This document shows, piece by piece, positions 3,807-32,184 of a stretch of 32,263 nucleotides of DNA. The stretch's first letter is position 1. Every line of letters begins with the position of its first letter. The stretch comes from Candidatus Tayloriibacteriota bacterium (GTDB lineage Bacteria; Patescibacteriota; Minisyncoccia; Phycocordibacterales; PALSA-1337): positions 1 through 32,263 of the forward strand of contig JAYTYJ010000008.1 in NCBI GenBank assembly GCA_043742445.1, read 5' to 3'. Below the pieces are notes generated by a model. The model had not been told where the DNA came from, searched no databases, and was given only the letters and a program-made list of their open reading frames with translations. Position numbers and translations under genes: made by a program.

Positions 3807-3880
3807 GCGCCTGTAGCTCAGTTGGTTAGAGCATCGAGCTTATACCTCGAGGGTCCCACGTTCGAATCGTGGCAGGCGCA
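3807..3880 (+). tRNA. tRNA-Ile, anticodon UAU
   Basis: Hand-folded cloverleaf: acceptor GCGCCTG/CAGGCGC, D arm GCTC..GAGC, anticodon arm TCGAG-CTTATAC-CTCGA, T arm CCACG-TTCGAAT-CGTGG, discriminator A. CCA is not encoded. Confidence 0.85.
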
Positions 3881-3936
3881 CAAATTTTAATTTGGAAGGA
3901 ATTATTAACCCAGAGAGGTAGAACATAAAGCGGCAC

Positions 3937-13088: not shown

Positions 13089-13179
13089 TGGCGGAACCGG
13101 AGGGATTCGAACCCTCGAGACCTTTAAAGGGCCTGCCTCTTTAGCAAAGAGGTATGTTAGACCACTCCACCACGGTTCC
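13089..13179 (-). tRNA. tRNA-Ser, anticodon GCU, class II, CCA encoded
   Basis: Reverse complement: GGAACCG-TG-GTG..CAT-A-CCTCT-TTGCTAA-AGAGG-long variable arm-GAGGG-TTCGAAT-CCCTC-CGGTTCC-G-CCA. Confidence 0.9.
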
Positions 13180-16023: not shown

Positions 16024-16110
16024 GGAAAGATGGGTGAGTGGTTTAAACCAGCGGTTTACTAAACCGCCGTTCCTTAATTGGAACCGCGAGTTCGAATCTC
16101 GCTCTTTCCG
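16024..16110 (+). tRNA. class II Ser-type tRNA with apparent anticodon ACU
   Basis: GGAAAGA-TG-GGT..ACC-A-GCGGT-TTACTAA-ACCGC-C-GTTCC-TTAATT-GGAAC-C-GCGAG-TTCGAAT-CTCGC-TCTTTCC-G. All stems are Watson-Crick. It has a 3-bp D stem, a long variable arm and G73, as in tRNA-Ser. The 7-nt loop places A-C-U at positions 34-36. Confidence 0.75.
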
Positions 16111-16204
16111 CAGATTGAAACTTCGCGGCGGCATTTTCTGCCCGCCCTCTCGCCTTGCCGCTTGTTTCCACTCTGATTTTTTCGCGGGGGAATTCAAAAA
16201 AGGA

Positions 16205-17223: not shown

Positions 17224-18348
17224 ATGAGCATTAAAAATAAATTATATTTTGTAATCGTTTGTTTATTTGTTTGTGCAGTGCTGGTGGGTACTTTTGTTGT
17301 TTATAATAAATCAGCAATTGTTTCTTCTATCAACAATTCGATTGTTTCTGTAAATAATTTAGCGGACGCTGATAAAGCTGATCCAAATGATCTTAATTCA
17401 GCATACAAACAAGCTTCTCTCGAAGAATATCAGCCTGGTTCAAATGGTACCTTTGGAGTATCGTATATATCACTTCCAGGAAAGCCAGCTTTGCAGGCAC
17501 TTAGTAAGTGTACTCCATCCTACGGTATTACACCTGAAGGCATCAAGTTAGACGAGACCAAAGCTAAAACCCTTATCCCTATAATGGACCTGAACCAAAA
17601 AATAGCTATTGCTCAAGGTTCAGTTTCTTTTGCAGAAAGTAGAATATCTTCGCTTGAAAAAACTATAGAGGCGCTCAATAACGCCATACTTTACAGCTCT
17701 TTTTCTGGATGGCTTGTTCCAACTGGTGTTGTCGAACCAGTACCTTTTGATTCTTTATCTGGAATTCAGACGAAATGTGGCGATGCCCGATGGGGGAAAG
17801 ATCCGGTTATACTTATAGGAAACAATGTGTTGAAAAACTACTCAGGTCTTGTTGATGATCCTAAAGGAAAAAATAAGATCAAAGCCGCACTCGCACTCTG
17901 GAATAAATATTTGGAAAATAATGGTCTTAACCCTATTGATACAGCTAAAGCCTATTTTATGTCGGATGATTTTGACATTCTTGATCCTTCAGACAAAAAA
18001 AGTAATCCAGTTGGATTACCTATATCTATAGGTATATCTATAAGTTTCAATCATGACTGTCTTAAGATCCATGAGCCATCTTCATCAAAAGGCCATGAGG
18101 ATGAGGTTTGTTTCGAAAATGGTAAGAAGGTTGTGGAAAATATGATTGATAGTGTTAAGTCAGCTGTTCTCAAGAAAATAGCTTTCTATGAAGACCAAAA
18201 GAAAACTTTCGAAGATAAGGTAAAATCTCTTACTAAAGAAAGAGACCAACAGGCAGACAAATATCGAACAACGCTCTATCTTAAAGGTCCTTTTGATAAG
18301 TTACCCGCGACCCCATCAAAGCCGGGCAGTTACTCCGGATTGAGGTGA
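17224..18348 (+). CDS. hypothetical membrane-anchored secreted protein (374 aa)
   Basis: N-terminal signal anchor LYFVIVCLFVCAVLVGTFVVY. Four Cys residues in the ectodomain and a coiled-coil-like C-terminus. I recognise no family. Confidence 0.8.
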   Translation: MSIKNKLYFVIVCLFVCAVLVGTFVVYNKSAIVSSINNSIVSVNNLADADKADPNDLNSAYKQASLEEYQPGSNGTFGVSYISLPGKPALQALSKCTPSYGITPEGIKLDETKAKTLIPIMDLNQKIAIAQGSVSFAESRISSLEKTIEALNNAILYSSFSGWLVPTGVVEPVPFDSLSGIQTKCGDARWGKDPVILIGNNVLKNYSGLVDDPKGKNKIKAALALWNKYLENNGLNPIDTAKAYFMSDDFDILDPSDKKSNPVGLPISIGISISFNHDCLKIHEPSSSKGHEDEVCFENGKKVVENMIDSVKSAVLKKIAFYEDQKKTFEDKVKSLTKERDQQADKYRTTLYLKGPFDKLPATPSKPGSYSGLR

Positions 18349-18625: not shown

Positions 18626-20176
18626 TTGGTTCCAGTTTCACACCAAAAGAACAAAATGATGCAAGACAAGAATTCAATATCCGACACCTCATTAAGTATT
18701 GCCCATATTGATAATCCAAAATCGAACTTTCAATACTTCCAGTTTTTATTGCCGACACCTGAGAAGAACATTATTCAGTGCGAGAAATATAACTCATATG
18801 AATTAAGTTTTCAATGCTACCAGTCATTAGCGGTGCTTCATAAAGATGTAAAATATTGCGAAAGCATCAAACGGAGTTTTGAGACTGGCTCAATGCATAA
18901 AGATCATTGCTATGATCTGGTGGCAAGAGAGTTACAAAATGTCGATTTATGTCAAAATATTGGAAACAAAAATGCTTTATCCGCTCCCTACGCTGATTGT
19001 GTAGCTTCAATTAAAAAAACTGTATTGGCCTGTCCTCCCTTGGAACCGCCTCATTATTATAATGGATCATACTCGTGTTATTTGGAAGCTGCAGTCGCAA
19101 AAATGGATTTATCTGTATGCGATAAATTCGGAAGCGATAATGAATCAAAAATGACATGCTACGAGAGTGTTGCTGAAACAAAAAAAGACGCTTCTATTTG
19201 TGAGCTCGGTTCATCAACGGGCGAACAAAGAGATAGTTGTTATTCAAAGTTATTTTTTTCTTCAGACAATCAGAACGAATCCTTATGCGAGAAAATTACC
19301 AATACTGAACTAAAAAATAGATGCCACAAGGTAAAAAGACGTCAGCTTATAGCTCACAATAACGATATCAAAGCATGTAATGATTTTGCCTCTAAAGAGG
19401 ATAAGGGAGCGTGTTTTTATGAAATTGCAGAAGCTCAAAACAACCCTGCGTTATGCGAACGGATCGAGAGCGACGAGCTCGCGGTAAATCAGTGTGTTAT
19501 CCAGTCGTCTCCAGCGATCTCCAATCCTTCAATTTGTGAGACGTTAAAGGACACTCATTATGATCAATCTGACAGATACCTTTGTTATTTTCAATATGCT
19601 ACTGTAAATCAAAAACCTGAAATTTGTGAGAAAATGAATGTACCTGACTCACTATACGGCTGTCTCGATGCTGTCATAGGGGGAAGACTCCCAAAATTGG
19701 CATCCTTCTTTTCTAAGTATGAATACGTTCCGTTCAACAAGTTTTTTATATCTTCCATAAAAAACTCATCTAGAGTTTCCAGACTATATTTTGGTGCTAC
19801 AGAGGAAAAAGTAGCGAATTCGCCGGGGGTAGCTTTTACTTTATCGGGTAAGTCATTTACAGCAACAGCTACATTTTCAATGGCGCTGTCACCTGAAGCG
19901 ATAGATTATAAGCTCGGCTCGCTACTACAGGACATAAAATTAAAACTTGACCCATATGGATATATTTCGCCTCAGGGCGAAGAAGGTCTCGGTAACAAAT
20001 TCGAAACTAAAAGTAGTCTGTGGTATAAACCAGCATTTTTTGAGAAATCTGATAAAAAAAAGTGGCAGTTTTATCAAATCACTGACCTTTATATTTCTGT
20101 AATAGAGATGGAAGTTTATTATGATTCAATGGTACATGTAGAAGTATTTGAATCTGATCCAATAAAAATCGAATAA
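18626..20176 (+). CDS. cysteine-rich repeat protein (about 11 two-Cys repeats plus a Cys-free C-terminal domain); 5' end problematic
   Basis: The tracked ORF starts at TTG 18626; an in-frame ATG is at 18656. The same frame is open back to a TAA at 18545-18547. There it encodes KKFWVRIIFSLIFLVFIIFLVWQF, a signal anchor, with no canonical start codon. Upstream of that TAA, still in frame, an ATG at 18473 has TATTAT exactly 6 nt before it. Confidence 0.75.
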   Translation: MVPVSHQKNKMMQDKNSISDTSLSIAHIDNPKSNFQYFQFLLPTPEKNIIQCEKYNSYELSFQCYQSLAVLHKDVKYCESIKRSFETGSMHKDHCYDLVARELQNVDLCQNIGNKNALSAPYADCVASIKKTVLACPPLEPPHYYNGSYSCYLEAAVAKMDLSVCDKFGSDNESKMTCYESVAETKKDASICELGSSTGEQRDSCYSKLFFSSDNQNESLCEKITNTELKNRCHKVKRRQLIAHNNDIKACNDFASKEDKGACFYEIAEAQNNPALCERIESDELAVNQCVIQSSPAISNPSICETLKDTHYDQSDRYLCYFQYATVNQKPEICEKMNVPDSLYGCLDAVIGGRLPKLASFFSKYEYVPFNKFFISSIKNSSRVSRLYFGATEEKVANSPGVAFTLSGKSFTATATFSMALSPEAIDYKLGSLLQDIKLKLDPYGYISPQGEEGLGNKFETKSSLWYKPAFFEKSDKKKWQFYQITDLYISVIEMEVYYDSMVHVEVFESDPIKIE

Positions 20177-20268: not shown

Positions 20269-21333
20269 TTAGTTATTCAGCAGCGAGACAAAAAAAGTAG
20301 TGCCCATGTTCTCTTTAGATTCAAAACGAAGTTTGCCCCCATGACCTTCTACAATTGCTTTTACTACATATAGTCCGAGACCGGTTCCGTCGGTTTCTTT
20401 GGTTTGAACATTTTCAGCTCTAAAAAACTTCTCAAACATACGCCCCTGATCCTTTGTAGGAATACCAAGACCGGTGTCGGAAATTGAAAAAGTTGTGTAT
20501 TGCTTGTCAGAAGAATCCGCTTTGATGTGTACTTCATCACCTTCATGAGAATATTTAACCGCATTAGAAAGTAAGTTGCCGAAAACCTGCCTGATTTTAT
20601 CAGAATCTACCTGTAAGTTAAGAGTTTTAGGAAAATCTGTATCACGAATGATTTTTACTTTATGTTTTTCAGCAAGTCCGATTAAGTCGGTTGCGAGTGA
20701 ATCGAGTATGGGCGCAATATCTGTTGTCTTTTTTGTAATTATGAATTTCGTGCCTCCAGCTTCAATTCGAGAAACATTCAGAAGATCTTCAACCAGTTTT
20801 ATCATCCGTTCGTTACTATCACTGATCTGAGTCAAGAAATCTTTTTGATCAGCGGTTACTTCTCCCGCTTTGCCGCGAAGCATCAAGTCCACAAACCATT
20901 TGATGCCTGTAAGGGGTGTGCGGAGTTGATGAGAAGCTAGGGAAACGAATTCAGATTTCATCGTATCAATCTCTTCCCGTTCAAGTGTTGCGCTCATCCA
21001 TGCACCCATCAAGCGAACAAAGTCTTTGTCGCTTTCAGTAAATGTTGGGCGATGTGGGTCTGGGTCGAGGAAGGTCAGTGTGCCAAATAATGACCCGTGC
21101 ACTTTAATAGGAACACCTATGTAAGACTCCAGTTTAAATTTTGTATAGCATACATGTGCTTTATATTCTGATATGCTCATGGCACTGATTGCGACAACGT
21201 CATCAGCTTTTACGGTAATATCGCAGTATGTTTCCGCGAGCTTGAACACATCTTCTTCATGCACGGTATCGGGAGGAGTGACAGCATAGAGAACAGTAAA
21301 TGTACCGTCTTCAATATGGTTAAGCATTGCCAT
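20269..21333 (-). CDS. histidine kinase core (partial GAF + HisKA + HATPase_c)
   Basis: H box SHQLRTPLT, N box LLSNAVKYS, G boxes DTGLGI and GTGLGLYVVK. The N-terminal ~120 aa is GAF-like. No TM segment. Confidence 0.9.
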   Translation of the reverse strand: MAMLNHIEDGTFTVLYAVTPPDTVHEEDVFKLAETYCDITVKADDVVAISAMSISEYKAHVCYTKFKLESYIGVPIKVHGSLFGTLTFLDPDPHRPTFTESDKDFVRLMGAWMSATLEREEIDTMKSEFVSLASHQLRTPLTGIKWFVDLMLRGKAGEVTADQKDFLTQISDSNERMIKLVEDLLNVSRIEAGGTKFIITKKTTDIAPILDSLATDLIGLAEKHKVKIIRDTDFPKTLNLQVDSDKIRQVFGNLLSNAVKYSHEGDEVHIKADSSDKQYTTFSISDTGLGIPTKDQGRMFEKFFRAENVQTKETDGTGLGLYVVKAIVEGHGGKLRFESKENMGTTFFVSLLNN

Positions 21334-21381
21334 CTTGGTGTAGAGAGTTTCATTTCCTGTTTTAAGGGCAGCCCTGAATTG

Positions 21382-22167
21382 TTAAGGAATTGTAACTTCT
21401 TTCCGTGTACTGATTTCATAGAGCGAACGGAGGCGATTTCTTTGTTCCTCGGCTTCTTCTTCGCTTGTTTTTATGCGAGCAATGAAGCGATTGGTTTTCT
21501 TTGTAAAATACAGATAGAGAAAAAGAAGCAAAATGGTAGCACCTGCAATTATTGCCGGGACAGCCTTTTCAACAAAAATAATCTGCTTAAAGTGAGAAGC
21601 GGAGATATCTGTACCCACAAGCGCAACAGTTTTCCCAGTTACACGGTCAACAATGGGCGCAAAACCAGAAACCCAAGAGCCGAATGAATCTTTATAGGGT
21701 CCTTCCGTAACCCCTTTTTGATTATGGAAAGCATCGAGTTGGATTTGGTCTGTGTCCTTGTAAATATCACCTGGAGCAGAGTAGCCCGCAGTACCAGGGA
21801 TCTCAGAGTCTACATAGAAAAAGAATTTTTTGTCGTCTCTATTACGGAGACCCATCAAATACACAAATCTTGTATCTGATTCTACTGCCTTAACATCCAC
21901 CATAATCTTCTTAAACTTTTGGTATTGCGAAGAATCGATATCCGCGGGCGTCCCTGTAAGCTGATCTATATCTACCATATCAATAGCGCGTGCTGTAATT
22001 TCTGAATGAGCGAGCAAATCGGCCCGCTCAGTTTCCTCGGCTTGTTTTCCTGTCCACACAGACACACATGTGCCAACAATCGCAACCACAACGATCACGA
22101 ATAGTATCCATTTTGTTTGTATGATTCCTTTCGTCTCCGCTTTTTCTAATAGAGGTTTATTGTCCAT
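21382..22167 (-). CDS. TM-Cache/PDC-like sensor-TM module (N-terminal part of the kinase)
   Basis: A TM helix, then a ~160-aa extracytoplasmic domain ending GSWVSGFAPIVDRVTGKTVALVGTDIS (typical Cache/PDC end), then a second TM helix and a coiled coil. It ends at a TAA that is in frame with the downstream kinase ORF. Confidence 0.8.
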   Translation of the reverse strand: MDNKPLLEKAETKGIIQTKWILFVIVVVAIVGTCVSVWTGKQAEETERADLLAHSEITARAIDMVDIDQLTGTPADIDSSQYQKFKKIMVDVKAVESDTRFVYLMGLRNRDDKKFFFYVDSEIPGTAGYSAPGDIYKDTDQIQLDAFHNQKGVTEGPYKDSFGSWVSGFAPIVDRVTGKTVALVGTDISASHFKQIIFVEKAVPAIIAGATILLLFLYLYFTKKTNRFIARIKTSEEEAEEQRNRLRSLYEISTRKEVTIP

Positions 22168-22176
22168 AACAAATAT

Positions 22177-25100
22177 TTATTGCACCGTCTTTCTTTTCCT
22201 TGTCCCTATGTACAGAGCTCCAAAGATACAAGCGAGAACAGTGAGAAGCGTTGTTGGGAGGTCGACGTATGAGAGAACAACAGCTGCCATATTTTGTTTT
22301 ACTTCAAAAGTTTCAACTAGGGATGGCTTTGATTTTACTTTACTGCCCGGATCATAGGTAACTGCAAAGACACTGTGTTCTCCGGGTGAGAGCTCCACAT
22401 TTTGTTGGTCATGCTTATAATTCCACTCTCCTTTGGAATCCACATCAGTCGTATAGACGACGACTTGATCGGAATGGATAAAAAGCGCAACCTTTGAGCT
22501 TGGAATACCTTTGCCTGTAAACGTAATCGAGCCGCCGGCAACTGATTTATTCACAGCACTAATAACTGGTTTAACTATAACAGCCGATTCGCGAGCCTCC
22601 GAAAGATTTTTAACAGTTGTATTGGTAAACGCAACGGTCGCAGTAATCGGAACAACAGTCGTGACAATAACCTCTTTGGAACCACCTCTACCACCTTCCA
22701 CACTAACGCTTCCGCCACCCGATGATGCCGAAGAAGAAACGGGTGAGGCATTTACCGTAACCGTAGTATCTGAAGGTACCACGGGAAGCACGGGTAACAA
22801 TAGCGCGATACTATCAGAGACCTTACTTGCATTATCGCCAACACCAAAGCTTGTGTAATATTTTACATACACTGTATGTGTACCGTTTTCACATGTAGCA
22901 AGTCCTCCGCAGAGATTCCATGGAGAAGTTGAAGTATACGCCACAAGAGCAGCATCACCGAGATCTGCATGATTGGAAATTGCCATAAGGGCGGTATCGT
23001 CTCCGGCAGTAAGCGTCAATGTCACGTCTCTACTATCAGTGGTTACATTTCCACCATTTATTTTTATTTTAAATCCTCCTACTGGTGCAGTCGTCGGAAG
23101 CGTGCTCGTGTCAGGAAGTGTAAGGGTTATTTCTTCAGAAGTACTTATTGGAACTGAATTATTTACTGTCGTTACATGTGTCTTTGTGTTGAAGAACGCG
23201 ACAGGTGAAGTCATTTCATGTCCGAAGTCATCATACGCAGTTATCTTTGCATAATAGCGCGTGTTTGCTGTGAGTCCGGTAACGATTGTGCGATCCGTGC
23301 CAACGATGCTCATATCAGAATCTCGAAGCGGCCCCCATGTGTACACTGATGCTCCCGTACCAACAGTAACTTCTGCAAGGTTGGTTCCATAGGTGATTAT
23401 ATAGCGTGAGAAATGCAACTCTCCTCCAGCTGGTGACCAGTGCCAGAGAATATCATTTTCGTTTGAAGAAAGTCCTTCAAAATTTGCCAGGCCAAATGGA
23501 ATTCGAGTATCAACGGCAATAGGGTCACTTAAAGAATCATTTTGGGTCACGCTCGTATTTCCAAACGTATCGGTTGCTGTAATGCGGGCTTTTACATTTC
23601 CTTCAAATACGGGGAGATTTGTTCCGGCATTCCAGCTTATGGTATGCGTAGTCACCCCGTCAGCGTTTGTTACTTCTCCCAGGTCTCCTGCTCTGCCTGT
23701 TGTTGGAACAATCCATGTAAGGCCATTGTCACTTGAAAGCTCAAAAGAAATATGAACGGGCGCACTTGCATCTGCCACTTTGTAAGTAATATGAACAGTG
23801 TCAGCAGCACTTTGCTGTGATCCCTCGACTGATGTTACTACTGGTGCTTTTGTATCGATACGGAATGGACCAAAGGTTTCATTCATACTTCCAAGGAGTC
23901 CATCGGTTCCTTTCAAGCGAACATACACATTGCTTGAAGTATGTGGTAGATCAGCTTTGACATCCCAAACGAATGTATGCGGTGTGCCAGATATAGAACC
24001 AGCAAGTCCGCCAGTGCCACTACTGTCAGTATCAATATTTGTTTCGGTCATGGATTGTTCTTCTCCGTTCCATGCCCCTGTTTTTGAATACTCATATTTT
24101 GTCAAAGTTATAAAATTATTTTCTGGATCAGTTACCGTGTAGTTAATATCGACAAAATTATCATCATGTTTTTGAGATGCATTTGTTATATTAATTACCG
24201 GAGCATTATTGCCGCACTCAATATAGTTGGCATTGATCTGTGCCAATGATAGAGCTTCAAGAACGACACCTGCGGATACGCAACCGATAGAAGTAGAAAC
24301 TTGCGCAGGTGGAGCCACTACAATCGGTGCATTCAATGTGGCCGATACCGATCCGTCAATGTACAGTTTCAAATTAGAGCCATCGTACGTAAGAACAACA
24401 ATGTGATCGCCGACGGAAATATTTCCAGATGCTCCACCACTCGTAGTCAAAGTTGTTTGTTCGAGACTTGTATTTGTAACTTTCACTACCAGTCCATTAT
24501 CAGGTCCTTCTTCTAAGCTAAATAGTCCCGGAACAGAATAGAGAGCATGTCCCGGTGTTCCAGTGGTTTTAATAACAGTGTGTACTGAAAATGGAATTGG
24601 TACTACAGCAGGTGTCGTTACTGTTGTATTTGTAGTAAGAGAAGTGTTTTGATTTACATCAATAGAATTGGTGTCCGTGGTGGGTATTGATGGAGCTTCA
24701 ACTGATGTACTGGAAGTGGTGTTAGTCGTTATGGAAGCAATAGAATCTGTTACAGCAATCACCGAGGGGCTTTGCTCTGATGTAGTTGTCTGTATCGGAT
24801 TCGTATTTCCAGGGCTCATAATTGAAGCGATGGTAGTATGCTCTGCATAGTCTGCGGTCAAAGACAGAAGCGTTACATCGTGAGCGCAATCACTGGTAAA
24901 TCGAGCTTGGAAAGAGAGCGTGGCGACTCCTCCCACCGAAAGACTCGTAGGAAGACTGCTGATGTGATTGTTAATATCATGTGCCGTATTGTAATTATTT
25001 ATACTAGCAGTTGCCCAGGCACTTCCATTAAAATACTGCCATGTAATCCCGCTGTCAGTTGAAAGTTGGTATGCTATGTCGCCACCGTTCTTGTTTGCGA

Positions 25101-25884
25101 CTTCAGAAAAGGAAGTCCAGTGATCAAATGTTGCAACGACAAGCGGAGCAATCGGTTCAAGTGTTGCTGAACAAGAATTACCTTGAGCAAACGCGATATT
25201 TGGAGCAAAAATGGATTTCAAAGAATTTAAAATGAGTGGACTTGACGGTGCAACTGGCGCCGGAGTGGGCGCTGGTACTGACACTGGTTCGGGCGCAGGG
25301 ACTGGCGCCGATTCTATAATGGGTGCGGGTGGAGTCGGGGTTGTCGTTTCGGGCGTCGTAGGAGTTACGGTTGTTGAAGATGTATCGGGAGTGCTCACAG
25401 GCGGCACAATAGTATTTACAGGAACTTCTATGGTAGTCTGGGTTGCCTTAAAGACCACTGTTCCATCAACAACCTGAATCTTGGTCGGATCATAATGATA
25501 TGCGAGAGAATTATTGAAATCCCAGCTTGCAGTAGAAGCATAGCTTGCCCCCGGAAAAAGGGTCAGACCAAACAAAGCGATTGCTACCCAGAATACAAAA
25601 GCAAGCACCATTCCGCCGAGCACAGAGAGCGATACGATTCTGCGGAGGCGGTATGTTTTTATCGCGTTTTGGTCACCACCAGCGAAGAATTCCGGTTTGA
25701 TAAAGGCATATGCAGGAAGTGAGATGAAAAAGTTTGCAAGTTCGAGTAATAAAATAAAAAAGCCATAGAGAATTATCTTTGGCCCGTTGGTGTCTACTAG
25801 TTTTAATTTGTAAGAGTTGATAAATGCTGAAAAATGCAGCATGACATTCAGCCACTTTTCCTTCACCTCGTGATTTTTTTTCAT
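22177..25884 (-). CDS. giant surface protein (1235 aa) with Ig/FN3-like and LamG-like domains
   Basis: An N-terminal TM hairpin and a Pro/Thr/Ala-rich linker. A LamG-like stretch (HIVVLTYDGSNLKLYIDGS). An FN3-like stretch (WHWSPAGG..YIITYG..TGLTANTRYYAKITAYDDFGH). Several Ig-like repeats and a C-terminal TM helix with an RKRK tail. TATTTT lies 7 nt before the ATG. Confidence 0.9.
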   Translation of the reverse strand: MKKNHEVKEKWLNVMLHFSAFINSYKLKLVDTNGPKIILYGFFILLLELANFFISLPAYAFIKPEFFAGGDQNAIKTYRLRRIVSLSVLGGMVLAFVFWVAIALFGLTLFPGASYASTASWDFNNSLAYHYDPTKIQVVDGTVVFKATQTTIEVPVNTIVPPVSTPDTSSTTVTPTTPETTTPTPPAPIIESAPVPAPEPVSVPAPTPAPVAPSSPLILNSLKSIFAPNIAFAQGNSCSATLEPIAPLVVATFDHWTSFSEVANKNGGDIAYQLSTDSGITWQYFNGSAWATASINNYNTAHDINNHISSLPTSLSVGGVATLSFQARFTSDCAHDVTLLSLTADYAEHTTIASIMSPGNTNPIQTTTSEQSPSVIAVTDSIASITTNTTSSTSVEAPSIPTTDTNSIDVNQNTSLTTNTTVTTPAVVPIPFSVHTVIKTTGTPGHALYSVPGLFSLEEGPDNGLVVKVTNTSLEQTTLTTSGGASGNISVGDHIVVLTYDGSNLKLYIDGSVSATLNAPIVVAPPAQVSTSIGCVSAGVVLEALSLAQINANYIECGNNAPVINITNASQKHDDNFVDINYTVTDPENNFITLTKYEYSKTGAWNGEEQSMTETNIDTDSSGTGGLAGSISGTPHTFVWDVKADLPHTSSNVYVRLKGTDGLLGSMNETFGPFRIDTKAPVVTSVEGSQQSAADTVHITYKVADASAPVHISFELSSDNGLTWIVPTTGRAGDLGEVTNADGVTTHTISWNAGTNLPVFEGNVKARITATDTFGNTSVTQNDSLSDPIAVDTRIPFGLANFEGLSSNENDILWHWSPAGGELHFSRYIITYGTNLAEVTVGTGASVYTWGPLRDSDMSIVGTDRTIVTGLTANTRYYAKITAYDDFGHEMTSPVAFFNTKTHVTTVNNSVPISTSEEITLTLPDTSTLPTTAPVGGFKIKINGGNVTTDSRDVTLTLTAGDDTALMAISNHADLGDAALVAYTSTSPWNLCGGLATCENGTHTVYVKYYTSFGVGDNASKVSDSIALLLPVLPVVPSDTTVTVNASPVSSSASSGGGSVSVEGGRGGSKEVIVTTVVPITATVAFTNTTVKNLSEARESAVIVKPVISAVNKSVAGGSITFTGKGIPSSKVALFIHSDQVVVYTTDVDSKGEWNYKHDQQNVELSPGEHSVFAVTYDPGSKVKSKPSLVETFEVKQNMAAVVLSYVDLPTTLLTVLACIFGALYIGTRKRKTVQ

Positions 25885-26017
25885 ACTTTTTAAAATAAAA
25901 ATTAGTTCACGCGGGTTCTCGCATCGTCAAAGATCGAATGAAAATAATTTTACTAAATGTAAGTTAATAATGACCTAAGTATAAAACGTTTAGACCATAA
26001 ATGATAGTGTTAGTGTT

Positions 26018-26045
26018 TTGTTGTTGTCTTCATGTCTGTTATACT
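26018..26045 (+). promoter_or_regulatory. promoter candidate TTGTTG-16 nt-TATACT in leaderless geometry
   Basis: TATACT at 26040-26045 is 6 nt before the ATG at 26052. Confidence 0.45.
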
Positions 26046-26051
26046 TATCAC

Positions 26052-26423
26052 ATGAAAAAAATCATCGTGGTGGAAGATGAGCACATTTTACAAAAAGCAT
26101 TGTCGATTGAATTACTCGGTGCAGGTTTTGAAGTGATGAGCGCGTTTGACGGTGTTGCTGGTCTCGTACTTATCCAAAAGGAAATTCCCGCTCTCGTACT
26201 TCTTGATCTCACAATGCCAAAACTAAATGGTTTTGATGTATTAAAAGAGTTACAAGCAAAACCAGAAACAAAATCAATTCCTGTTATAATCCTCTCTAAT
26301 TTAGGACAGGACGAGGACAAAGAAAAAGCTATGTCCCTCGGTGCCACTGATTATTTTATAAAGTCCAACACAGACCTATCTCTCCTTACGCAAAAAATAG
26401 AAAAGATGCTTCAAAATAAATAA
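26052..26423 (+). CDS. single-domain response regulator (CheY-like receiver)
   Basis: MKKIIVVEDE, phospho-acceptor context LVLLDLTMPKLNG, IILSNLG, ATDYFIK. No output domain. The start at 26052 is preferred over the tracked 26001 because of the -10 box and typical receiver N-terminus. Confidence 0.9.
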   Translation: MKKIIVVEDEHILQKALSIELLGAGFEVMSAFDGVAGLVLIQKEIPALVLLDLTMPKLNGFDVLKELQAKPETKSIPVIILSNLGQDEDKEKAMSLGATDYFIKSNTDLSLLTQKIEKMLQNK

Positions 26424-26430
26424 GAAAAAG

Positions 26431-27246
26431 ATGGCAACATTCCGCGACAACTGGTCAAATAAAATTCTCCATCTCAGCTCTTTTATACATACAAAAAAGA
26501 ATGACCTTGTTCTCGCTAACAGCTGGAAAGCCTTTGGTGTTGTTCTTTCCATCATTGTTGCCGAGATTCTCCTCCTTATCCTGTCATTGCCATCTTATCT
26601 TGTTATGCGCGACAGAGATACTACAGGAGATCACTCTGATGTAAGGCAGTACAAACTTCGTCGCGCGCTGACACTTGGCACCATCGCAACACTTTTAATC
26701 ATTTGGGCTATCAAACTGATCCTTATTCTTTTTCTTGTCTGGCATACAAACACCTATGGCACGATAAAAATAAATGAAACAAACAATCAGAACGCTGTGA
26801 TCAATAGTACCGCACACGATATGCTTGTTGCCGGTGTTGATGATAAACTTTCTCCTCCCCATATAGCAGTTGTAGAGAGCAAGCACGGAGAAATCGCTCT
26901 CACTGGAACTGCACAGAGTGGAGAGGCGGTGATTATCCTATTTTCCGAGACAGGAACGAGGGCGAATTTTCCACCAAAGATTTATACCGCATGGACTGAT
27001 ACTAAAGGCGCATTCAGTCTCACCGAAGATAGTTCCGTGTTCAATCTTCCTCCGGGTAATTACAGTGTCTCGGGTATAACTTACGATCCAGCACATAAAA
27101 CAAAAAGCTCTAACAGTACGACTTTTTCTTTTACCGTACATCAAACTCTCACAGAGCGTTTTGTGCATAGTTTCGATGTACTCCTAAATATCCTAGCTCT
27201 TATGGCAATCATCATTGGTTTGTTGGTTACTATTTTGGTCAGCTAG
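26431..27246 (+). CDS. membrane protein paralogous to both ends of the giant surface protein
   Basis: Shares with 22177-25884 the N-terminal module (W-N..LH.S.FI...K..LV ... SLP.Y ... YKLRR/YRLRR ... W.I). It also shares the C-terminal Ig-like module (L.PG..SV...TYDP..K.KS) followed by a terminal TM helix. Confidence 0.8.
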   Translation: MATFRDNWSNKILHLSSFIHTKKNDLVLANSWKAFGVVLSIIVAEILLLILSLPSYLVMRDRDTTGDHSDVRQYKLRRALTLGTIATLLIIWAIKLILILFLVWHTNTYGTIKINETNNQNAVINSTAHDMLVAGVDDKLSPPHIAVVESKHGEIALTGTAQSGEAVIILFSETGTRANFPPKIYTAWTDTKGAFSLTEDSSVFNLPPGNYSVSGITYDPAHKTKSSNSTTFSFTVHQTLTERFVHSFDVLLNILALMAIIIGLLVTILVS

Positions 27247-28818: not shown

Positions 28819-29421
28819 CTAATGTGCCACCGTTAGAGCTATTACATCCACGAAACCCGCTCTTAGTAAAGTCTCCCGAGCTTCTTTCAAAGTGCTTCCA
28901 GTTGTGCTTACATCATCTATGATAAGAATTCTTTCTGAGCCTTTAGACGTTCTGGTGACTTCAAATATATTCTTAGTATTTTCTATTCTCTCATTTCTAT
29001 TTTTAAATGTTTGTTTGTCTATGTCTTTAGATCTGATAAGAAGTGTATAATCTTTTGAAATTTTTGGATTAATTTTACATATTTCGTCAATTATTAATTC
29101 ACACTGATTGTATCCTCGCTCTTTTTTTCTTTTATTTGAAATGGGAATAGGAATTAAAAGAAAATCAGCCGTCACTTTTTTCGATAGAGCCAAAGCCGCA
29201 ATTGCCACTGCATGTTTATTTTTCTTATATTTAATCTGCAAGATCAATTCTCTGGTGAGAGGATATTTATATGAAAAGATCGATAATATAAAAGGAAATT
29301 CGGTTTTTATTGAGCGAGGAGTGGTTTTTAGAAAATTTTCAGGAGAAATAGTTCGAAGTTCTAATTCTTCTGCGTTTGGTGGAAATAAGAAGTCTATTAT
29401 ATAGTGGAAAAAATGCTTCAT
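28819..29421 (-). CDS. comFC: ComF family phosphoribosyltransferase-fold protein
   Basis: ERGYNQCELI and ILIIDDVSTTGSTLKEA (PRT motif). The tracked ORF reaches 29502 but would overlap the pilM start by 41 nt. The ATG at 29421 (MKHFFHYIIDFLFPP) has TATAAG exactly 6 nt upstream. Confidence 0.8.
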   Translation of the reverse strand: MKHFFHYIIDFLFPPNAEELELRTISPENFLKTTPRSIKTEFPFILSIFSYKYPLTRELILQIKYKKNKHAVAIAALALSKKVTADFLLIPIPISNKRKKERGYNQCELIIDEICKINPKISKDYTLLIRSKDIDKQTFKNRNERIENTKNIFEVTRTSKGSERILIIDDVSTTGSTLKEARETLLRAGFVDVIALTVAH

Positions 29422-29427
29422 TATTTG

Positions 29428-29455
29428 CTTATATGTTATTGCACTATGATATAAT
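29428..29455. promoter_or_regulatory. back-to-back divergent -10 boxes for comFC and pilM
   Basis: Minus-strand TATAAG (rc of 29428-29433) is followed by 6 nt and then an ATG. Plus-strand TATAAT (29450-29455) is followed by 6 nt and then the ATG at 29462. Confidence 0.55.
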
Positions 29456-29461
29456 AATCTC

Positions 29462-30592
29462 ATGGATTTCTTTAATAAGATATTTTCTTCTCTTTTTTCC
29501 AAAAAATCTCAAAGTGTTTTGGGTATTGATATTGGTTCTTCAGCTATAAAAGTAGTGCAAATAAAGAAAAAAAGAGGGAGAGCGGTACTGGAAACCTATG
29601 GTGAGCTTGCTTTAGGGCCATATGCAGGTGTAGAAGTTGGTCGATCTACAAGCCTTACAAAGGAGAAGACTATCGAAGCTCTAAAAGATATTCTCAGAGA
29701 GGCAAAGACGACGACAGTCACCTGTGGAGTGGCGCTACCACTTTCTTCTAGTCTTATTACTTTTATCACTATTCCTCACGTCCCAGATAAACAGCTGGCC
29801 GAAGTCATTTCTCTAGAGGCTAGAAAGTATATCCCAGTTCCAATGAACGAAGTAATGTTTGATTATTCAATTATTCCACGGGAAGAAGCTTTTTCTACAG
29901 ATGATAGAGATGTTGCCAGCAAGCAGGTTCTAGTAAATGAAAAACAACCCCTGGATGTTTTAGTGGTGGCTATTCATAATGAATACATAAATAGTTATCA
30001 AGCTATTTCAGCAGGACTTTCTTTGCAACCTTCTTTTTACGAGATAGAACTTTTCTGTTCTATTCGTGCTGTCATCGAACAGGGAATACAAGCGGTAATG
30101 ATCATAGACATGGGAGCACAAGCGACCAAGCTTTATATAGTAGAGAGAGGTCTTCTTCGTGCTTCTCATATTATAAATAGAGGATCACAGGATATCACCT
30201 TAGCTATATCAAAATCACTGAGTCTAACAGTCAACGAAGCAGAAAATATCAAGAGGACTTTTGGTCTGAAGGGTGGTCCTGAATACAAAGAACTTACTGA
30301 AATCATAACTGTAAACTTAGATTATATTTTTTACGAAGCAAATGCAGCACTTTTTAAGTATCAAAAGAAGTATATGAAAAATATTAGTAAGGTTATTTTG
30401 ACAGGCGGTGGCGTTCTTCTAAAAGGATTTACTGATTTAGCAAAAGTTAGTTTCCAAACTGAAGTCATTTATGCAAATCCATTTGCAAAACTAGAAACTC
30501 CTGCTTTTCTCAATGATAAATTCTCAGAAGCTGGTCCAGAGTTTGCAGTCGCCATCGGCTGTGCATTACGTCGATTGTCTGAAATTGATTAA
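29462..30592 (+). CDS. pilM: type IV pilus assembly ATPase-like protein PilM
   Basis: 376 aa with an actin-like fold signature (VLGIDIGSSAIKVVQI, IIDMGAQATKLYIV, ILTGGGVLLKG). Confidence 0.9.
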   Translation: MDFFNKIFSSLFSKKSQSVLGIDIGSSAIKVVQIKKKRGRAVLETYGELALGPYAGVEVGRSTSLTKEKTIEALKDILREAKTTTVTCGVALPLSSSLITFITIPHVPDKQLAEVISLEARKYIPVPMNEVMFDYSIIPREEAFSTDDRDVASKQVLVNEKQPLDVLVVAIHNEYINSYQAISAGLSLQPSFYEIELFCSIRAVIEQGIQAVMIIDMGAQATKLYIVERGLLRASHIINRGSQDITLAISKSLSLTVNEAENIKRTFGLKGGPEYKELTEIITVNLDYIFYEANAALFKYQKKYMKNISKVILTGGGVLLKGFTDLAKVSFQTEVIYANPFAKLETPAFLNDKFSEAGPEFAVAIGCALRRLSEID

Positions 30593-30610
30593 TCAACTAT
30601 AATTAGTGTA

Positions 30611-31246
30611 ATGGATACAAAATTCCAAACATCGTTCATTCCCAAAAAACCGATAGTCATGGATCAAAGGGTAGTAAAGCATAGTGGAGGCACCAGCGTC
30701 CTCATGTTTATAGCTGTAATTATTTTTATAGTCTCTCTTGCTGGTGCCGGTTTCACTTTTGTCTGGAAGGATATACTTTTAAGACAGCAAGATACATACG
30801 TATCTGATTTAAAAAAAGCTCAGAATAGGTTTGATATAGGACTTATTGAAAAATTAAAAAAAGCTAATACAAAGATTGATCTAGGAGCCAAATTATTGAA
30901 AAAACATCTAGCCATTTCAGAAGTTTTTTCGATTATCAGTTCCTTAACTGCTGATAGTGTTCGTTTTACAGATTTTCAATTTGTGGCACCCACAATCGAT
31001 GGTGATGAGGCAAAGATTACCATGAAAGGCTTTGGAAATAGTTATCCTTCCGTCGCTTGGCAGAGTGATGTTTTCGGTCAATCTTCAAAATATGGAAAAA
31101 ATAAGATCTTGAAGAATCTAGTATTGTCAGATCCAGTTGTAGATCTAAATGGAAATGTAGTCTTTACTTTTACTGCAACTTTAAATCCTGATGATATTTC
31201 ATATGAAAAATCATTAGCTTCAGGATTAAATAATCCAACCCAATAA
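30611..31246 (+). CDS. pilN: PilN-like pilus assembly protein
   Basis: A single N-terminal TM helix after a short cytoplasmic tail, followed by a coiled coil. Positioned directly after pilM. Confidence 0.65.
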   Translation: MDTKFQTSFIPKKPIVMDQRVVKHSGGTSVLMFIAVIIFIVSLAGAGFTFVWKDILLRQQDTYVSDLKKAQNRFDIGLIEKLKKANTKIDLGAKLLKKHLAISEVFSIISSLTADSVRFTDFQFVAPTIDGDEAKITMKGFGNSYPSVAWQSDVFGQSSKYGKNKILKNLVLSDPVVDLNGNVVFTFTATLNPDDISYEKSLASGLNNPTQ

Positions 31247-31247
31247 T

Positions 31248-31826
31248 ATGAATAGAAACGTTACACCTTTAATCCTCATTGTTCTAGCCGTTGGTATTTA
31301 TTTTACCTTCACACAATCTAAATACGATGAAGATAAAGGGATTCAAGTTATAAATGGTGGATATCAGCAGGCACTAGATAATTCAGAAAAATTAATAAAA
31401 GTAAGAGATACTGTTCTTGATTCTTACAATAAAATTACTCCTGAAAATCAAGAGCGTCTTAATAAGATACTACCCGATAACGTTGATAATGTTCGACTGA
31501 CTATAGACTTAGGTAGTGTGGCAGCAAGGCACGGTCTAGCTATAAAAAATGTAAAAACATCTGCTGATAAATCTACCAATAACAGCTCGGCATCTGCCGT
31601 AACTAATTCTCAGAATCAGATCCAATCTGGAAGTATGACAAATGAATACAATACCGTCAGCCTTTCTTTTGAAACATCAGGAGATTATCAGACCTTCTTA
31701 GATTTCTTGAAAGATGTTGAGGCAAGTTTACGTATTTTGGAAATCTCAAAGATTTCTCTAAAGGTAAATGATACGGGCTCATATGATTATAATGTAGAGG
31801 TTAAAACCTATTGGTTAAAACAATAA
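31248..31826 (+). CDS. pilO: PilO-like pilus assembly protein
   Basis: N-terminal TM helix, a coiled coil, and a C-terminal ferredoxin-like segment (VSLSFETSGDYQTFLDFLKDVEASLRILEISKISL) typical of PilO. Confidence 0.65.
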   Translation: MNRNVTPLILIVLAVGIYFTFTQSKYDEDKGIQVINGGYQQALDNSEKLIKVRDTVLDSYNKITPENQERLNKILPDNVDNVRLTIDLGSVAARHGLAIKNVKTSADKSTNNSSASAVTNSQNQIQSGSMTNEYNTVSLSFETSGDYQTFLDFLKDVEASLRILEISKISLKVNDTGSYDYNVEVKTYWLKQ

Positions 31827-31827
31827 A

Positions 31828-32184
31828 ATGCAACAAAAATCATCACCATCAAAAGGTACATTTATAGCATTGGTAGTCATCGCAATCGTGACTCTAGGAC
31901 TTTTCTTTTATTATAGAGGTAGTCCAAGTGATGGATCACTTTCTTCTTTACAAACAAGAGTAACACCAGAATCAGCTAAAGCTAAAGCTGATTCTGATAG
32001 GATATTGCTTTTATTAAATCAAATCAATCAGCTTCGTATAGACAGTGCTCTTTTCAAGAGCACTGTATTTAATTCTCTTGTAGATTATTCAATCACGATC
32101 CCAGAGCAGCCAGTTGGCAGAGCAAATCCTTTTGCGCCAGTTGGTGGTTTTCAACAAATAGAAAAAAAGCCAGCAAAAAAATAA
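31828..32184 (+). CDS. small pilus-operon membrane protein (PilP-like position, GRANPF motif)
   Basis: N-terminal TM helix and a C-terminal VGRANPFAP motif. Located between pilO and the pilB start. Confidence 0.55.
   Translation: MQQKSSPSKGTFIALVVIAIVTLGLFFYYRGSPSDGSLSSLQTRVTPESAKAKADSDRILLLLNQINQLRIDSALFKSTVFNSLVDYSITIPEQPVGRANPFAPVGGFQQIEKKPAKK

Follow-up and report, generated by a model that had tools for sequence, protein, structure and literature searches.

A conserved Patescibacteria cassette encodes a sensor histidine kinase, a bare receiver, and a big and a mini membrane protein with common end modules

The stretch of DNA considered in this work (32,263 nt of contig JAYTYJ010000008.1, from here on called the window) carries at positions 20269-27246 a group of five open reading frames (ORFs), three on the minus strand and two on the plus strand. 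They make up a cassette of four genes: a sensor kinase gene, a gene for a bare receiver, and the genes for two membrane proteins, one big and one mini, that have a common N-terminal module (N-module) and a common C-terminal module (C-module; see Table 1). The genes come in pairs, i. e. the receiver gene abuts the mini gene with 7 nt between stop and start, and 9 nt lie between the stop codon of the big gene and the adjoining ORF that represents the 5' part of the kinase gene. These coordinates and spacings reproduce all those of an earlier note on this DNA, including the position of the CheY-like receiver immediately ahead of the small paralog. We are nearly certain that, in its architecture and in the linkage of its genes, this is a signalling cassette specific to the Patescibacteria. 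The two pairs diverge from an intergenic region that had been called a control region: Its length and the divergent arrangement were borne out, whereas conservation of this region is limited to close relatives, a shared operator was not found, and promoter-like sites and terminators appeared in scans only at chance level.

Table 1. Positions and content of the cassette features in the window
Feature	Position	Strand	Description
Kinase gene (whole)	20269..22167	-	633 codons; transmembrane helix, ~155-aa extracytoplasmic domain, transmembrane helix, GAF, HisKA, HATPase_c; one in-frame stop
Kinase 5' fragment	21382..22167	-	261 aa; transmembrane helix, extracytoplasmic sensor domain, transmembrane helix, GAF start
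Kinase 3' fragment	20269..21333	-	354 aa from internal ATG; truncated GAF, HisKA (H-box SHQLRTPL), HATPase_c
Nonsense codon TAA	21382..21384	-	in frame, inside GAF; relatives GAA (Glu)
Big	22177..25884	-	1235 aa; N-module, Pro/Thr-rich linker, beta-rich ectodomain, C-module
Big N-module	25543..25884	-	residues 1-114; amphipathic helix, hydrophobic helix 1, YRLRR loop, hydrophobic helix 2, FPGASYA/S (slash, putative cleavage point)
Big FN3-like domain	23197..23469	-	residues 806-896; sub-threshold Pfam fn3
Big C-module	22177..22593	-	residues 1098-1235; predicted Ig/FN3-like beta-sandwich (HSDQVVVYTT...GEHSVFAVTYDPGSKVKSKPS), terminal transmembrane helix, basic tail RKRK
Divergent intergenic region big/receiver	25885-26051	none	167 bp, with receiver start set at 26052
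Receiver	26052..26423	+	123 aa, predicted single-domain CheY-like, no output domain
Mini	26431..27246	+	271 aa; N-module 1-106, disordered linker 107-134, C-module 135-271 ending exactly at the transmembrane helix

Several lines of evidence tie the two membrane proteins to each other. First, a BLASTP comparison of big and mini gave two co-linear high-scoring segment pairs, a C-terminal one (residues 1143-1224 of big against 184-265 of mini, E=2e-11) and an N-terminal one (8-105 against 5-101, E=1e-6). Second, the alignment of the mini family with the big family by hhalign was highly significant for the N-module (Prob 98.8%, E=1.4e-16) as well as for the C-module (Prob 98.7%, E=2e-16); the collected sets comprised 10 mini orthologs (44-73% identity) and 17 big relatives (32-84% identity). 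Finally, hidden Markov models (HMMs) built from big proteins only match the mini protein of the window with E-values of 7e-22 (N-module) and 4e-16 (C-module). In the C-module, residues 135-271 of mini align with residues 1098-1235 of big, covering the entire beta-sandwich and the terminal helix. With BLASTP and profile scores of this strength, the resemblance is not one of low complexity or of generic transmembrane segments, and big and mini can be regarded as true paralogs that have both end modules in common, with a similarity far above chance. The shared modules and the sequence motifs that the earlier note had pointed out, as well as the profile-profile similarity that it had considered decisive, are thus all found.

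Within the N-module, conservation is strongest in short motifs outside the ectodomain: the N-terminal helix, a buried Glu, the SLPxY motif and the RR loop. The first helix is amphipathic and carries the motif W..N..LH.S.FI...K, of which W8, L13-H14, I19 and K23 (mini numbering here and below) are conserved throughout the family. Hydrophobic helix 1 contains E45 and ends in S52-L53-P54-x-Y56, and Y74-x-L76-R77-R78 precedes hydrophobic helix 2. E45 is invariant, and a Lys (K95, in the context W..KL with W92) is frequent at a similar depth of the second hydrophobic helix; the two may form a salt bridge within the membrane or act as a functional pair of charges.

How widespread is this pair of modules? 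An exhaustive search with a 20-sequence N-module profile against 1.84 billion representative proteins resulted in matches in 214 clusters (50% identity) at E<=1e-3, 148 of them at E<=1e-10, and the match was N-terminal in every listed case. When 176 N-module proteins were scored with the C-module HMM, 112 had the C-module at their extreme C-terminus. These include practically all proteins of about 255-285 aa and nearly all of more than 900 aa (up to 5686 aa); the proteins without a C-module are mostly fragments of about 110 aa truncated by contig ends. The pairing of the two modules is thus a rule for the whole family. By length, complete proteins form two size classes (about 255-380 aa and 900-5686 aa). 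A stricter cut on both modules left 109 proteins, i. e. 72 minis and 37 bigs, and the interval from 400 to 800 aa was empty. For 102 of these 109 proteins, the nearest neighbour by N-module belongs to the same size class. The bimodal sizes and the same-class neighbours identify two old lineages of paralogs that use the same chassis: the mini protein is the bare chassis, and the big protein is the chassis with an adhesin-like insert of 1,000-5,400 aa.

This family is absent from the curated resources that we consulted. The N-module is not covered by any profile of Pfam-A 2025, NCBIfam 20 or PADLOC, the chassis homologs are named 'hypothetical protein' in their sources and carry no precomputed Pfam domain, and full-text literature searches returned no description of the cassette or of the chassis family. 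In agreement with the earlier note, which could match the arrangement to no described system, the Pfam, NCBIfam, PADLOC, PDB fold and literature searches identified neither a family nor a system to which it belongs. An anti-phage defence system had been considered because the flanking regions are rich in restriction-modification, toxin-antitoxin and Abi genes, and was rejected: PADLOC detected only generic REC and HATPase similarities in the cassette and none for the big, mini or sensor parts.

The four genes have stayed together over a considerable evolutionary distance. We annotated 36 related loci (referred to by L numbers), which were obtained from contig look-ups and, with the big C-module as the query, from species-representative genomes and JGI metagenomes, using our own HMMs for the N-module, the C-module, REC, the kinase core and the sensor. 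The order with the receiver-mini unit and the big-kinase unit pointing away from each other is present in about 15 diverged lineages of Patescibacteria: It is complete in the window, L002-L004, L005/L008, L006, L007, L012, L014, L016, L018, L022, L028 and L030, and partial, limited by contig ends, in L009, L010, L017, L026 and L029. The named organisms include UBA6033, the Paceibacterota (Paceibacteria/Taylorbacteria-like; a Taylorbacteria homolog is also named as such), the Magasanikiibacteriota and the Doudnabacteria, and the linkage is also present in a single-cell amplified genome. The four orthologous genes are found together at identities from 91% down to 37%, with the big protein reaching the latter value. 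The spacing is equally tight across the loci: The receiver and mini genes are 7, 5, 1, 1 or 11 nt apart or overlap by 11 or 4 nt, and the big and kinase genes are separated by 9, 9, 4 or 21 nt. The flanking genes differ from lineage to lineage and include restriction-modification and toxin-antitoxin systems (among them HicAB), KAP NTPase, Fic, AbiEii, transposase and housekeeping genes. Since the same order recurs with different flanks, the linkage to the two-component genes is real, and the neighbourhood survey that the earlier note had proposed shows the association with a histidine kinase and a CheY-like receiver to be conserved in diverged Patescibacteria.

The arrangement is subject to variation. 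In L013, a single-cell genome, two receiver genes, the mini gene and the big gene follow each other on one strand, and in L031, L033 and L034 the big gene is followed by a receiver gene; the receiver gene is still located beside a chassis gene in these variants. The kinase is the least stable partner, it is displaced by insertions in L002, L006, L011, L021 and L028. In L002 (1908-9548), HicAB and a 200-aa gene are located between the divergent units, and the sensor part of the kinase has given way to a 180-aa gene; in L006 (12220-14948), NUDIX, DUF6922 and AbiEii genes lie between the big and the kinase genes; and in L028 (1470-4831), the big gene is split into ORFs of 469 aa and 657 aa. In the relatives, the cassette is a hotspot for insertion and decay. 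L032 (4313-5542) encodes a 409-aa protein, located after a kinase and a receiver, in which about 30 initial residues that resemble the start of REC are fused to Ig-like repeats and the C-module in the absence of an N-module; this is probably a rearranged or degenerate variant.

The receiver matches Pfam Response_reg with an E-value of 4.8e-21 over 110 of its 123 residues, and the catalytic residues E8/D9, D52, S82 and K104 can be read from its sequence. Its orthologs have 121-124 aa and all start with MKKII. The longest ORF begins with an ATG at 26001, which adds 17 residues that are missing from all orthologs; the true start is almost certainly at 26052. The NCBIfam response-regulator models match REC only and the protein ends directly after this domain, so that no DNA-binding output was detected. 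The receiver is therefore predicted to be a single-domain CheY-like response regulator and not a transcription factor of the OmpR, NarL or NtrC type. The cassette as a whole contains no gene for a DNA-binding protein.

According to the earlier note, the big gene is followed by a sensor ORF of the Cache type and then by a kinase ORF. Our data instead point to one kinase gene with a nonsense codon: The 261-aa and the 354-aa ORFs are in the same frame and separated by one TAA in the middle of the GAF domain (RKEVTIP-stop-QFRAALKTGNETLYTKMAMLNHIEDG), and this is the only stop in the single-frame translation of positions 20269-22167. At this position, the window reads ATTCCTTAACAATT (TAA) whereas L014, the closest relative (big protein 84% identical, kinase of at least 415 aa), reads ATTCCTGAACAATT (GAA) in an uninterrupted ORF. 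Glu is found at the same position in L002, L005 and L006 as well, and the kinase of L006 is intact with 616 aa and the order transmembrane helix, sensor, transmembrane helix, GAF, HisKA, HATPase_c. In the 3' part of the window gene, Pfam identified HATPase_c (3.5e-28) and HisKA (1.4e-17), and GAF matches at profile positions 47-132 only; the H-box SHQLRTPL and the N, G1 and G2 boxes can be read from the sequence. The gene is thus predicted to encode a HisKA-class sensor histidine kinase whose frame is interrupted in this assembly, either as a pseudogene or as a split gene. Stop-codon reassignment or readthrough of the TAA was considered and rejected, as TAA ends 19 of the 27 genes of the window and the closest relative has GAA. 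The TAA could be a fixed pseudogene mutation, a population variant or an assembly error, and the kinase of this genome is probably inactive, truncated or no more than a cytoplasmic fragment. Taken with the insertions and frameshifts of the relatives, the nonsense codon suggests that the cassette is often switched off, and this may reflect host-range or phase-type variation.

The assignment of the sensor domain to the Cache type is unproven. Neither a significant Cache/PDC profile match nor any match in the PDB profile search was obtained for the extracytoplasmic domain, and sCache_3_2 appeared with E=0.12 in one of five orthologs when Pfam was searched at E<=10. The domain looks Cache-like by eye only: About 155 aa are located between two transmembrane helices and carry the pattern 'WVSG.AP..D....G..vA..G.D' in their C-terminal part. 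The input part of the cassette kinases differs between the lineages. Most have a periplasmic domain between two transmembrane helices, those of L012, L022 and L029 have four to five transmembrane helices, L011 and L032 carry other long domains, and in L005/L008/L021 and L002 the input part is absent.

In the ectodomain of the big protein, a Pro/Thr-rich linker is accompanied by a BNR-like SxDxGxTW motif and an fn3-like domain. The earlier description of the insert as LamG-like and FN3-like is supported at the level of the family: fn3 was detected in 11 of 15 big relatives (best E=4e-8) and Laminin_G_3 in 6 of 15 (best E=4.3e-8). For the protein of the window itself, however, there is only a sub-threshold fn3 match (E=1.6e-4, 22.2 bits versus a cut-off of 25) and no Laminin_G match at E<=0.1. 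Two Cys pairs, C238/C333 and C992/C998, are invariant across the big family and would fit an extracytoplasmic location.

The structure of the mini protein was modelled by AlphaFold2 with an alignment of 72 mini sequences, resulting in a mean predicted local distance difference test (pLDDT) score of 84.7 and a predicted template modelling (pTM) score of 0.63; this model supersedes a run with 26 sequences that had reached a pLDDT of 66.9. In the model, helices at residues 4-28, 31-63 and 69-106 are followed by a disordered linker (109-122), a short helix (123-133), a beta-sandwich (144-236, with pLDDT >90 over 135-236) and the terminal helix (240-270). Foldseek matched the beta-sandwich to generic FN3/Ig-like domains in the PDB with E-values from 3e-5 to 1e-3, among them the linker domain of Amuc_1438, SiiE, Bap and cytokine receptors; the helical part had no match in the PDB. 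The C-module as originally proposed, an Ig-like domain with a terminal transmembrane helix, is thus supported by the model, and the domain is predicted to be an FN3/Ig-like beta-sandwich.

For the topology, the position of the ectodomain is the starting point: As it must be outside, helix 2, which is preceded by RR, should run from inside to outside, and the terminal helix, which is followed by RKRK in the bigs, from outside to inside. For helix 1, both flanks carry a net positive charge (+4.6/-1.1 for the N-terminal tail, +4.7/-2.0 for the loop before helix 2), so that the charges are compatible with either orientation of helix 1 and with either side for the N-terminal helix. Moreover, almost all members of the big class have a helix breaker and small residues at positions -3 and -1 after helix 2, reminiscent of a signal peptidase I site: FPGASYA/S in the window (big residues ~95-118, 25543-25600), and 'FPGxSxA/xxSWDFN' or 'GGQxLLA/ATQDW' in the relatives. 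Such a motif was not found after helix 2 in the mini class. The two transmembrane helices and the double anchoring of the earlier note are thus not established, and double anchoring is plausible for the minis and unproven for the bigs. A sortase signal of the LPXTG type was rejected, as the LPTTL of the window is replaced by WPTT, VWTT, LWTT or FTST in the relatives and by DVLLN in the minis, which lack the tail. The context of the RR motif, Y-x-L-R-R-[IAK]-[VLI]-[ST]-L, fits the twin-arginine translocation (Tat) motif S/T-R-R-x-F-L-K only loosely, and a hydrophobic helix lies upstream of it.

What could such a cassette do? That it couples extracellular sensing to the display of the surface protein, as had been suggested, can only be inferred. 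We propose, tentatively and with less than even confidence, an inside-out output that does not depend on transcription, in which the receiver, once phosphorylated, has the conserved cytoplasmic side of the shared module as its direct target. In this proposal, the kinase would phosphorylate the receiver, which would then dock on the cytoplasmic face of the N-module, i. e. on the helix with W8/L13-H14/I19/K23 and/or on the Y-x-L-R-R loop, in a manner similar to that of CheY on FliM. Docking would change the conformation, the oligomerization or the turnover of the surface protein, amounting to inside-out control of a protein that contacts the host or a substrate, and the mini protein would be a ligand-free regulatory partner. 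Three observations prompt this idea. First, a DNA-binding output is missing, and the receiver, mini and big proteins are constant while the kinase input is interchangeable. Second, the REC-only receiver has intact D52, S82 and K104 residues and is the component most constantly joined to a chassis gene. Finally, the chassis is most strongly conserved in short motifs that are not part of the ectodomain.

Four points weigh against direct action of the receiver on the shared module: With a membrane-spanning helix 1 and a cytoplasmic RR loop, the conserved N-terminal helix would end up outside, beyond the reach of the receiver; the signal-peptidase-like site after helix 2 means that the N-module of the bigs may be cut off; the broken kinase in the window and the split or displaced cassette genes in the relatives indicate that selection on the signalling link may be relaxed; and the target of the receiver could be encoded elsewhere.

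The signal might also travel in the opposite direction, a possibility that we consider unlikely: The ectodomain of big would bind a host or substrate ligand or bear a mechanical load, and the signal would pass via the shared module to the kinase, while the receiver would carry it to a target outside the cassette and the mini protein would serve as a co-receptor or decoy. The adhesin-type domains of the ectodomain and the neighbourhood of the big and kinase genes, often with 4-21 nt between them, are in line with this idea, and the kinases of L005/L008/L021 and L002, having neither a transmembrane nor an extracellular part, would need another membrane protein for any extracellular input. Most cassette kinases, however, have an extracytoplasmic or multi-transmembrane input of their own, insertions displace the kinase more often than any other component, and the joining of receiver and mini would be left unexplained.

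The cleavage-like motif found in almost all big-class members raises the question whether the N-module is a permanent anchor at all or rather a long conserved leader or targeting signal, with RR as the n-region and helix 2 as the h-region. Signal peptidase would then cut the big protein after helix 2, the mature protein would be held by its C-terminal helix only, and a leader of about 115 aa would stay in the membrane, perhaps bound to the C-terminal helix. Long signal peptides with motifs are known elsewhere (YSIRK, KxYKxGKxW, ESPR), and the invariant twin-Arg motif before helix 2 resembles such an n-region. But the mini class keeps the N-module without the cleavage motif, the NCBIfam models of the YSIRK and KxYKxGKxW signals did not match at E<=0.01, and the obligatory pairing of the N- and C-modules as well as the confident helical model point to a lasting assembly. 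We therefore judge a leader function to be unlikely; it would be compatible with signalling in either direction.

A REC-only receiver may also have its target outside the cassette, for example in the type IV pilus machinery as do PilG and PilH, in which case the mini and big proteins would be co-regulated cargo or would modulate the kinase like SaeP/Q, YycH/I and LiaF. Type IV pilus genes are indeed located 2 kb downstream in the window (PilM at 29462) and also near the cassette in L001, and kinases with membrane accessories encoded in the same operon are known from other systems (PMC5083920). However, pilus genes are not beside the cassette in the other loci, where the flanks differ in every lineage, and the Pfam and NCBIfam searches did not relate the sequences to known accessory proteins, and this makes a target elsewhere quite improbable in our view. 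It is very improbable, finally, that an adhesin pair and an unrelated two-component pair merely travel together on a genomic island: The restriction-modification, toxin-antitoxin, Fic, Abi and transposase genes in the flanks and the frequent insertions and decay inside the cassette are in line with such an island, but the four orthologs have been kept across several candidate phyla at 37% to 91% identity in changing surroundings, with spacings of a few bases or overlaps.

Returning to the action of the receiver on the shared module, one may go a step further and imagine an integrin-like device of ultra-small episymbionts, a chassis of three helices with an adhesin loop that can reach 5,400 residues. 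This device would either be switched from inside by a phosphorylated CheY-like protein or report host contact to the kinase. We regard this picture as possible, if rather doubtful. If it were true, it would represent a transcription-independent output of a two-component system onto a surface protein of a family without known relatives.

The surroundings of the cassette in the window contain further features. Directly upstream are ORFs for proteins of 374 aa (17224-18348, plus strand) and 516 aa (18626-20176, plus strand), the latter Cys-rich with a repeated C..C spacing; the two had no match in Pfam, NCBIfam or PADLOC and are not beside the cassette in other loci. A probable operon for type IV pilus assembly, consisting of a ComF-like gene, PilM and three more small ORFs, occupies positions 28819-32184, 1.6-2 kb downstream of the mini gene; L001 likewise has pilus genes in the vicinity of the cassette, whereas the more distant loci do not. 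ARAGORN identified a tRNA-Ser with the anticodon ACT (A at position 34; 16024-16111, plus strand) in addition to the tRNA-Ser(GCT) at 13089-13179, and a tRNA-Ile with the anticodon TAT (3807-3881, plus strand). The anticodons of tRNA-Ser(ACT) and tRNA-Ile(TAT) are unusual, and both genes score above the Rfam tRNA threshold. Finally, a tmRNA gene is located at 954-1372 on the minus strand (Rfam, 105.6 bits), with the predicted tag AKSALTKVASAVSPYFGAHDVTFAYATV.

With their tiny genomes and few regulators, Patescibacteria depend for their way of life on the attachment to other cells, and little is known about how this contact is sensed and controlled. A cassette of about 7 kb that lacks a transcription-factor output and has been kept intact across several candidate phyla is a concrete, testable candidate for the post-translational control of a contact protein. 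In addition, the new membrane-protein family with its two subfamilies and about 214 clusters could, once curated, serve to annotate giant proteins that are so far 'hypothetical'.

The cassette invites comparison with several well-studied systems. SaePQRS, WalRK-YycHI, LiaFSR and BceRS-AB resemble it in that the genes of a HisKA/HATPase_c kinase and of a REC protein lie beside genes for small membrane proteins that are neither transporters nor enzymes and that probably contact the signalling proteins. In contrast to these systems, the cassette regulator has no DNA-binding domain, the accessory proteins come from a family that is undescribed and had no match in sequence or fold, one accessory is a surface protein of about 1,200-5,700 aa, and the cassette is restricted to the Patescibacteria. 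With CheY-FliM, DivK, CpdR and PilG/PilH it has in common a REC-only receiver, here of about 121 aa, with intact phospho-acceptor residues, whose output must be a protein contact. Unlike those systems, the cassette lacks a CheA, Hpt or flagellar partner, its receiver gene is in an operon with a membrane protein gene, and the docking site is putative.

On the side of the surface protein, LapA/LapG/LapD of Pseudomonas, SiiE and Bap come to mind: These too involve a giant repetitive beta-sandwich protein at the cell surface whose retention could be governed by cytoplasmic signalling, and the beta-sandwich of the C-module resembles the Ig-like domains of SiiE and Bap in its fold. The cassette differs from them by the absence of RTX repeats, of a type I secretion signal and of LapD and LapG homologs, by anchoring through the protein's own helices and by a monoderm-like envelope, and from the Lap system by signalling through phosphotransfer rather than cyclic di-GMP. 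As in LPXTG/sortase proteins, the big protein ends in a hydrophobic helix and a basic tail, with LPTTL before the helix in the window, and a conserved n-region motif, Y-x-L-R-R, lies ahead of a hydrophobic helix as it does in the YSIRK, KxYKxGKxW and ESPR type of signal. LPxT is, however, not conserved and absent from the minis, and the N-module has an extra conserved helix and a hydrophobic helix upstream. Beyond the generic histidine kinase and REC families, the cassette is a member of none of these systems: Its signalling parts are ordinary, and the parts without a description in the literature searched are the chassis family, its obligatory two-ended design, the duality of big and mini, and the fixed linkage to a REC-only regulator in the Patescibacteria.

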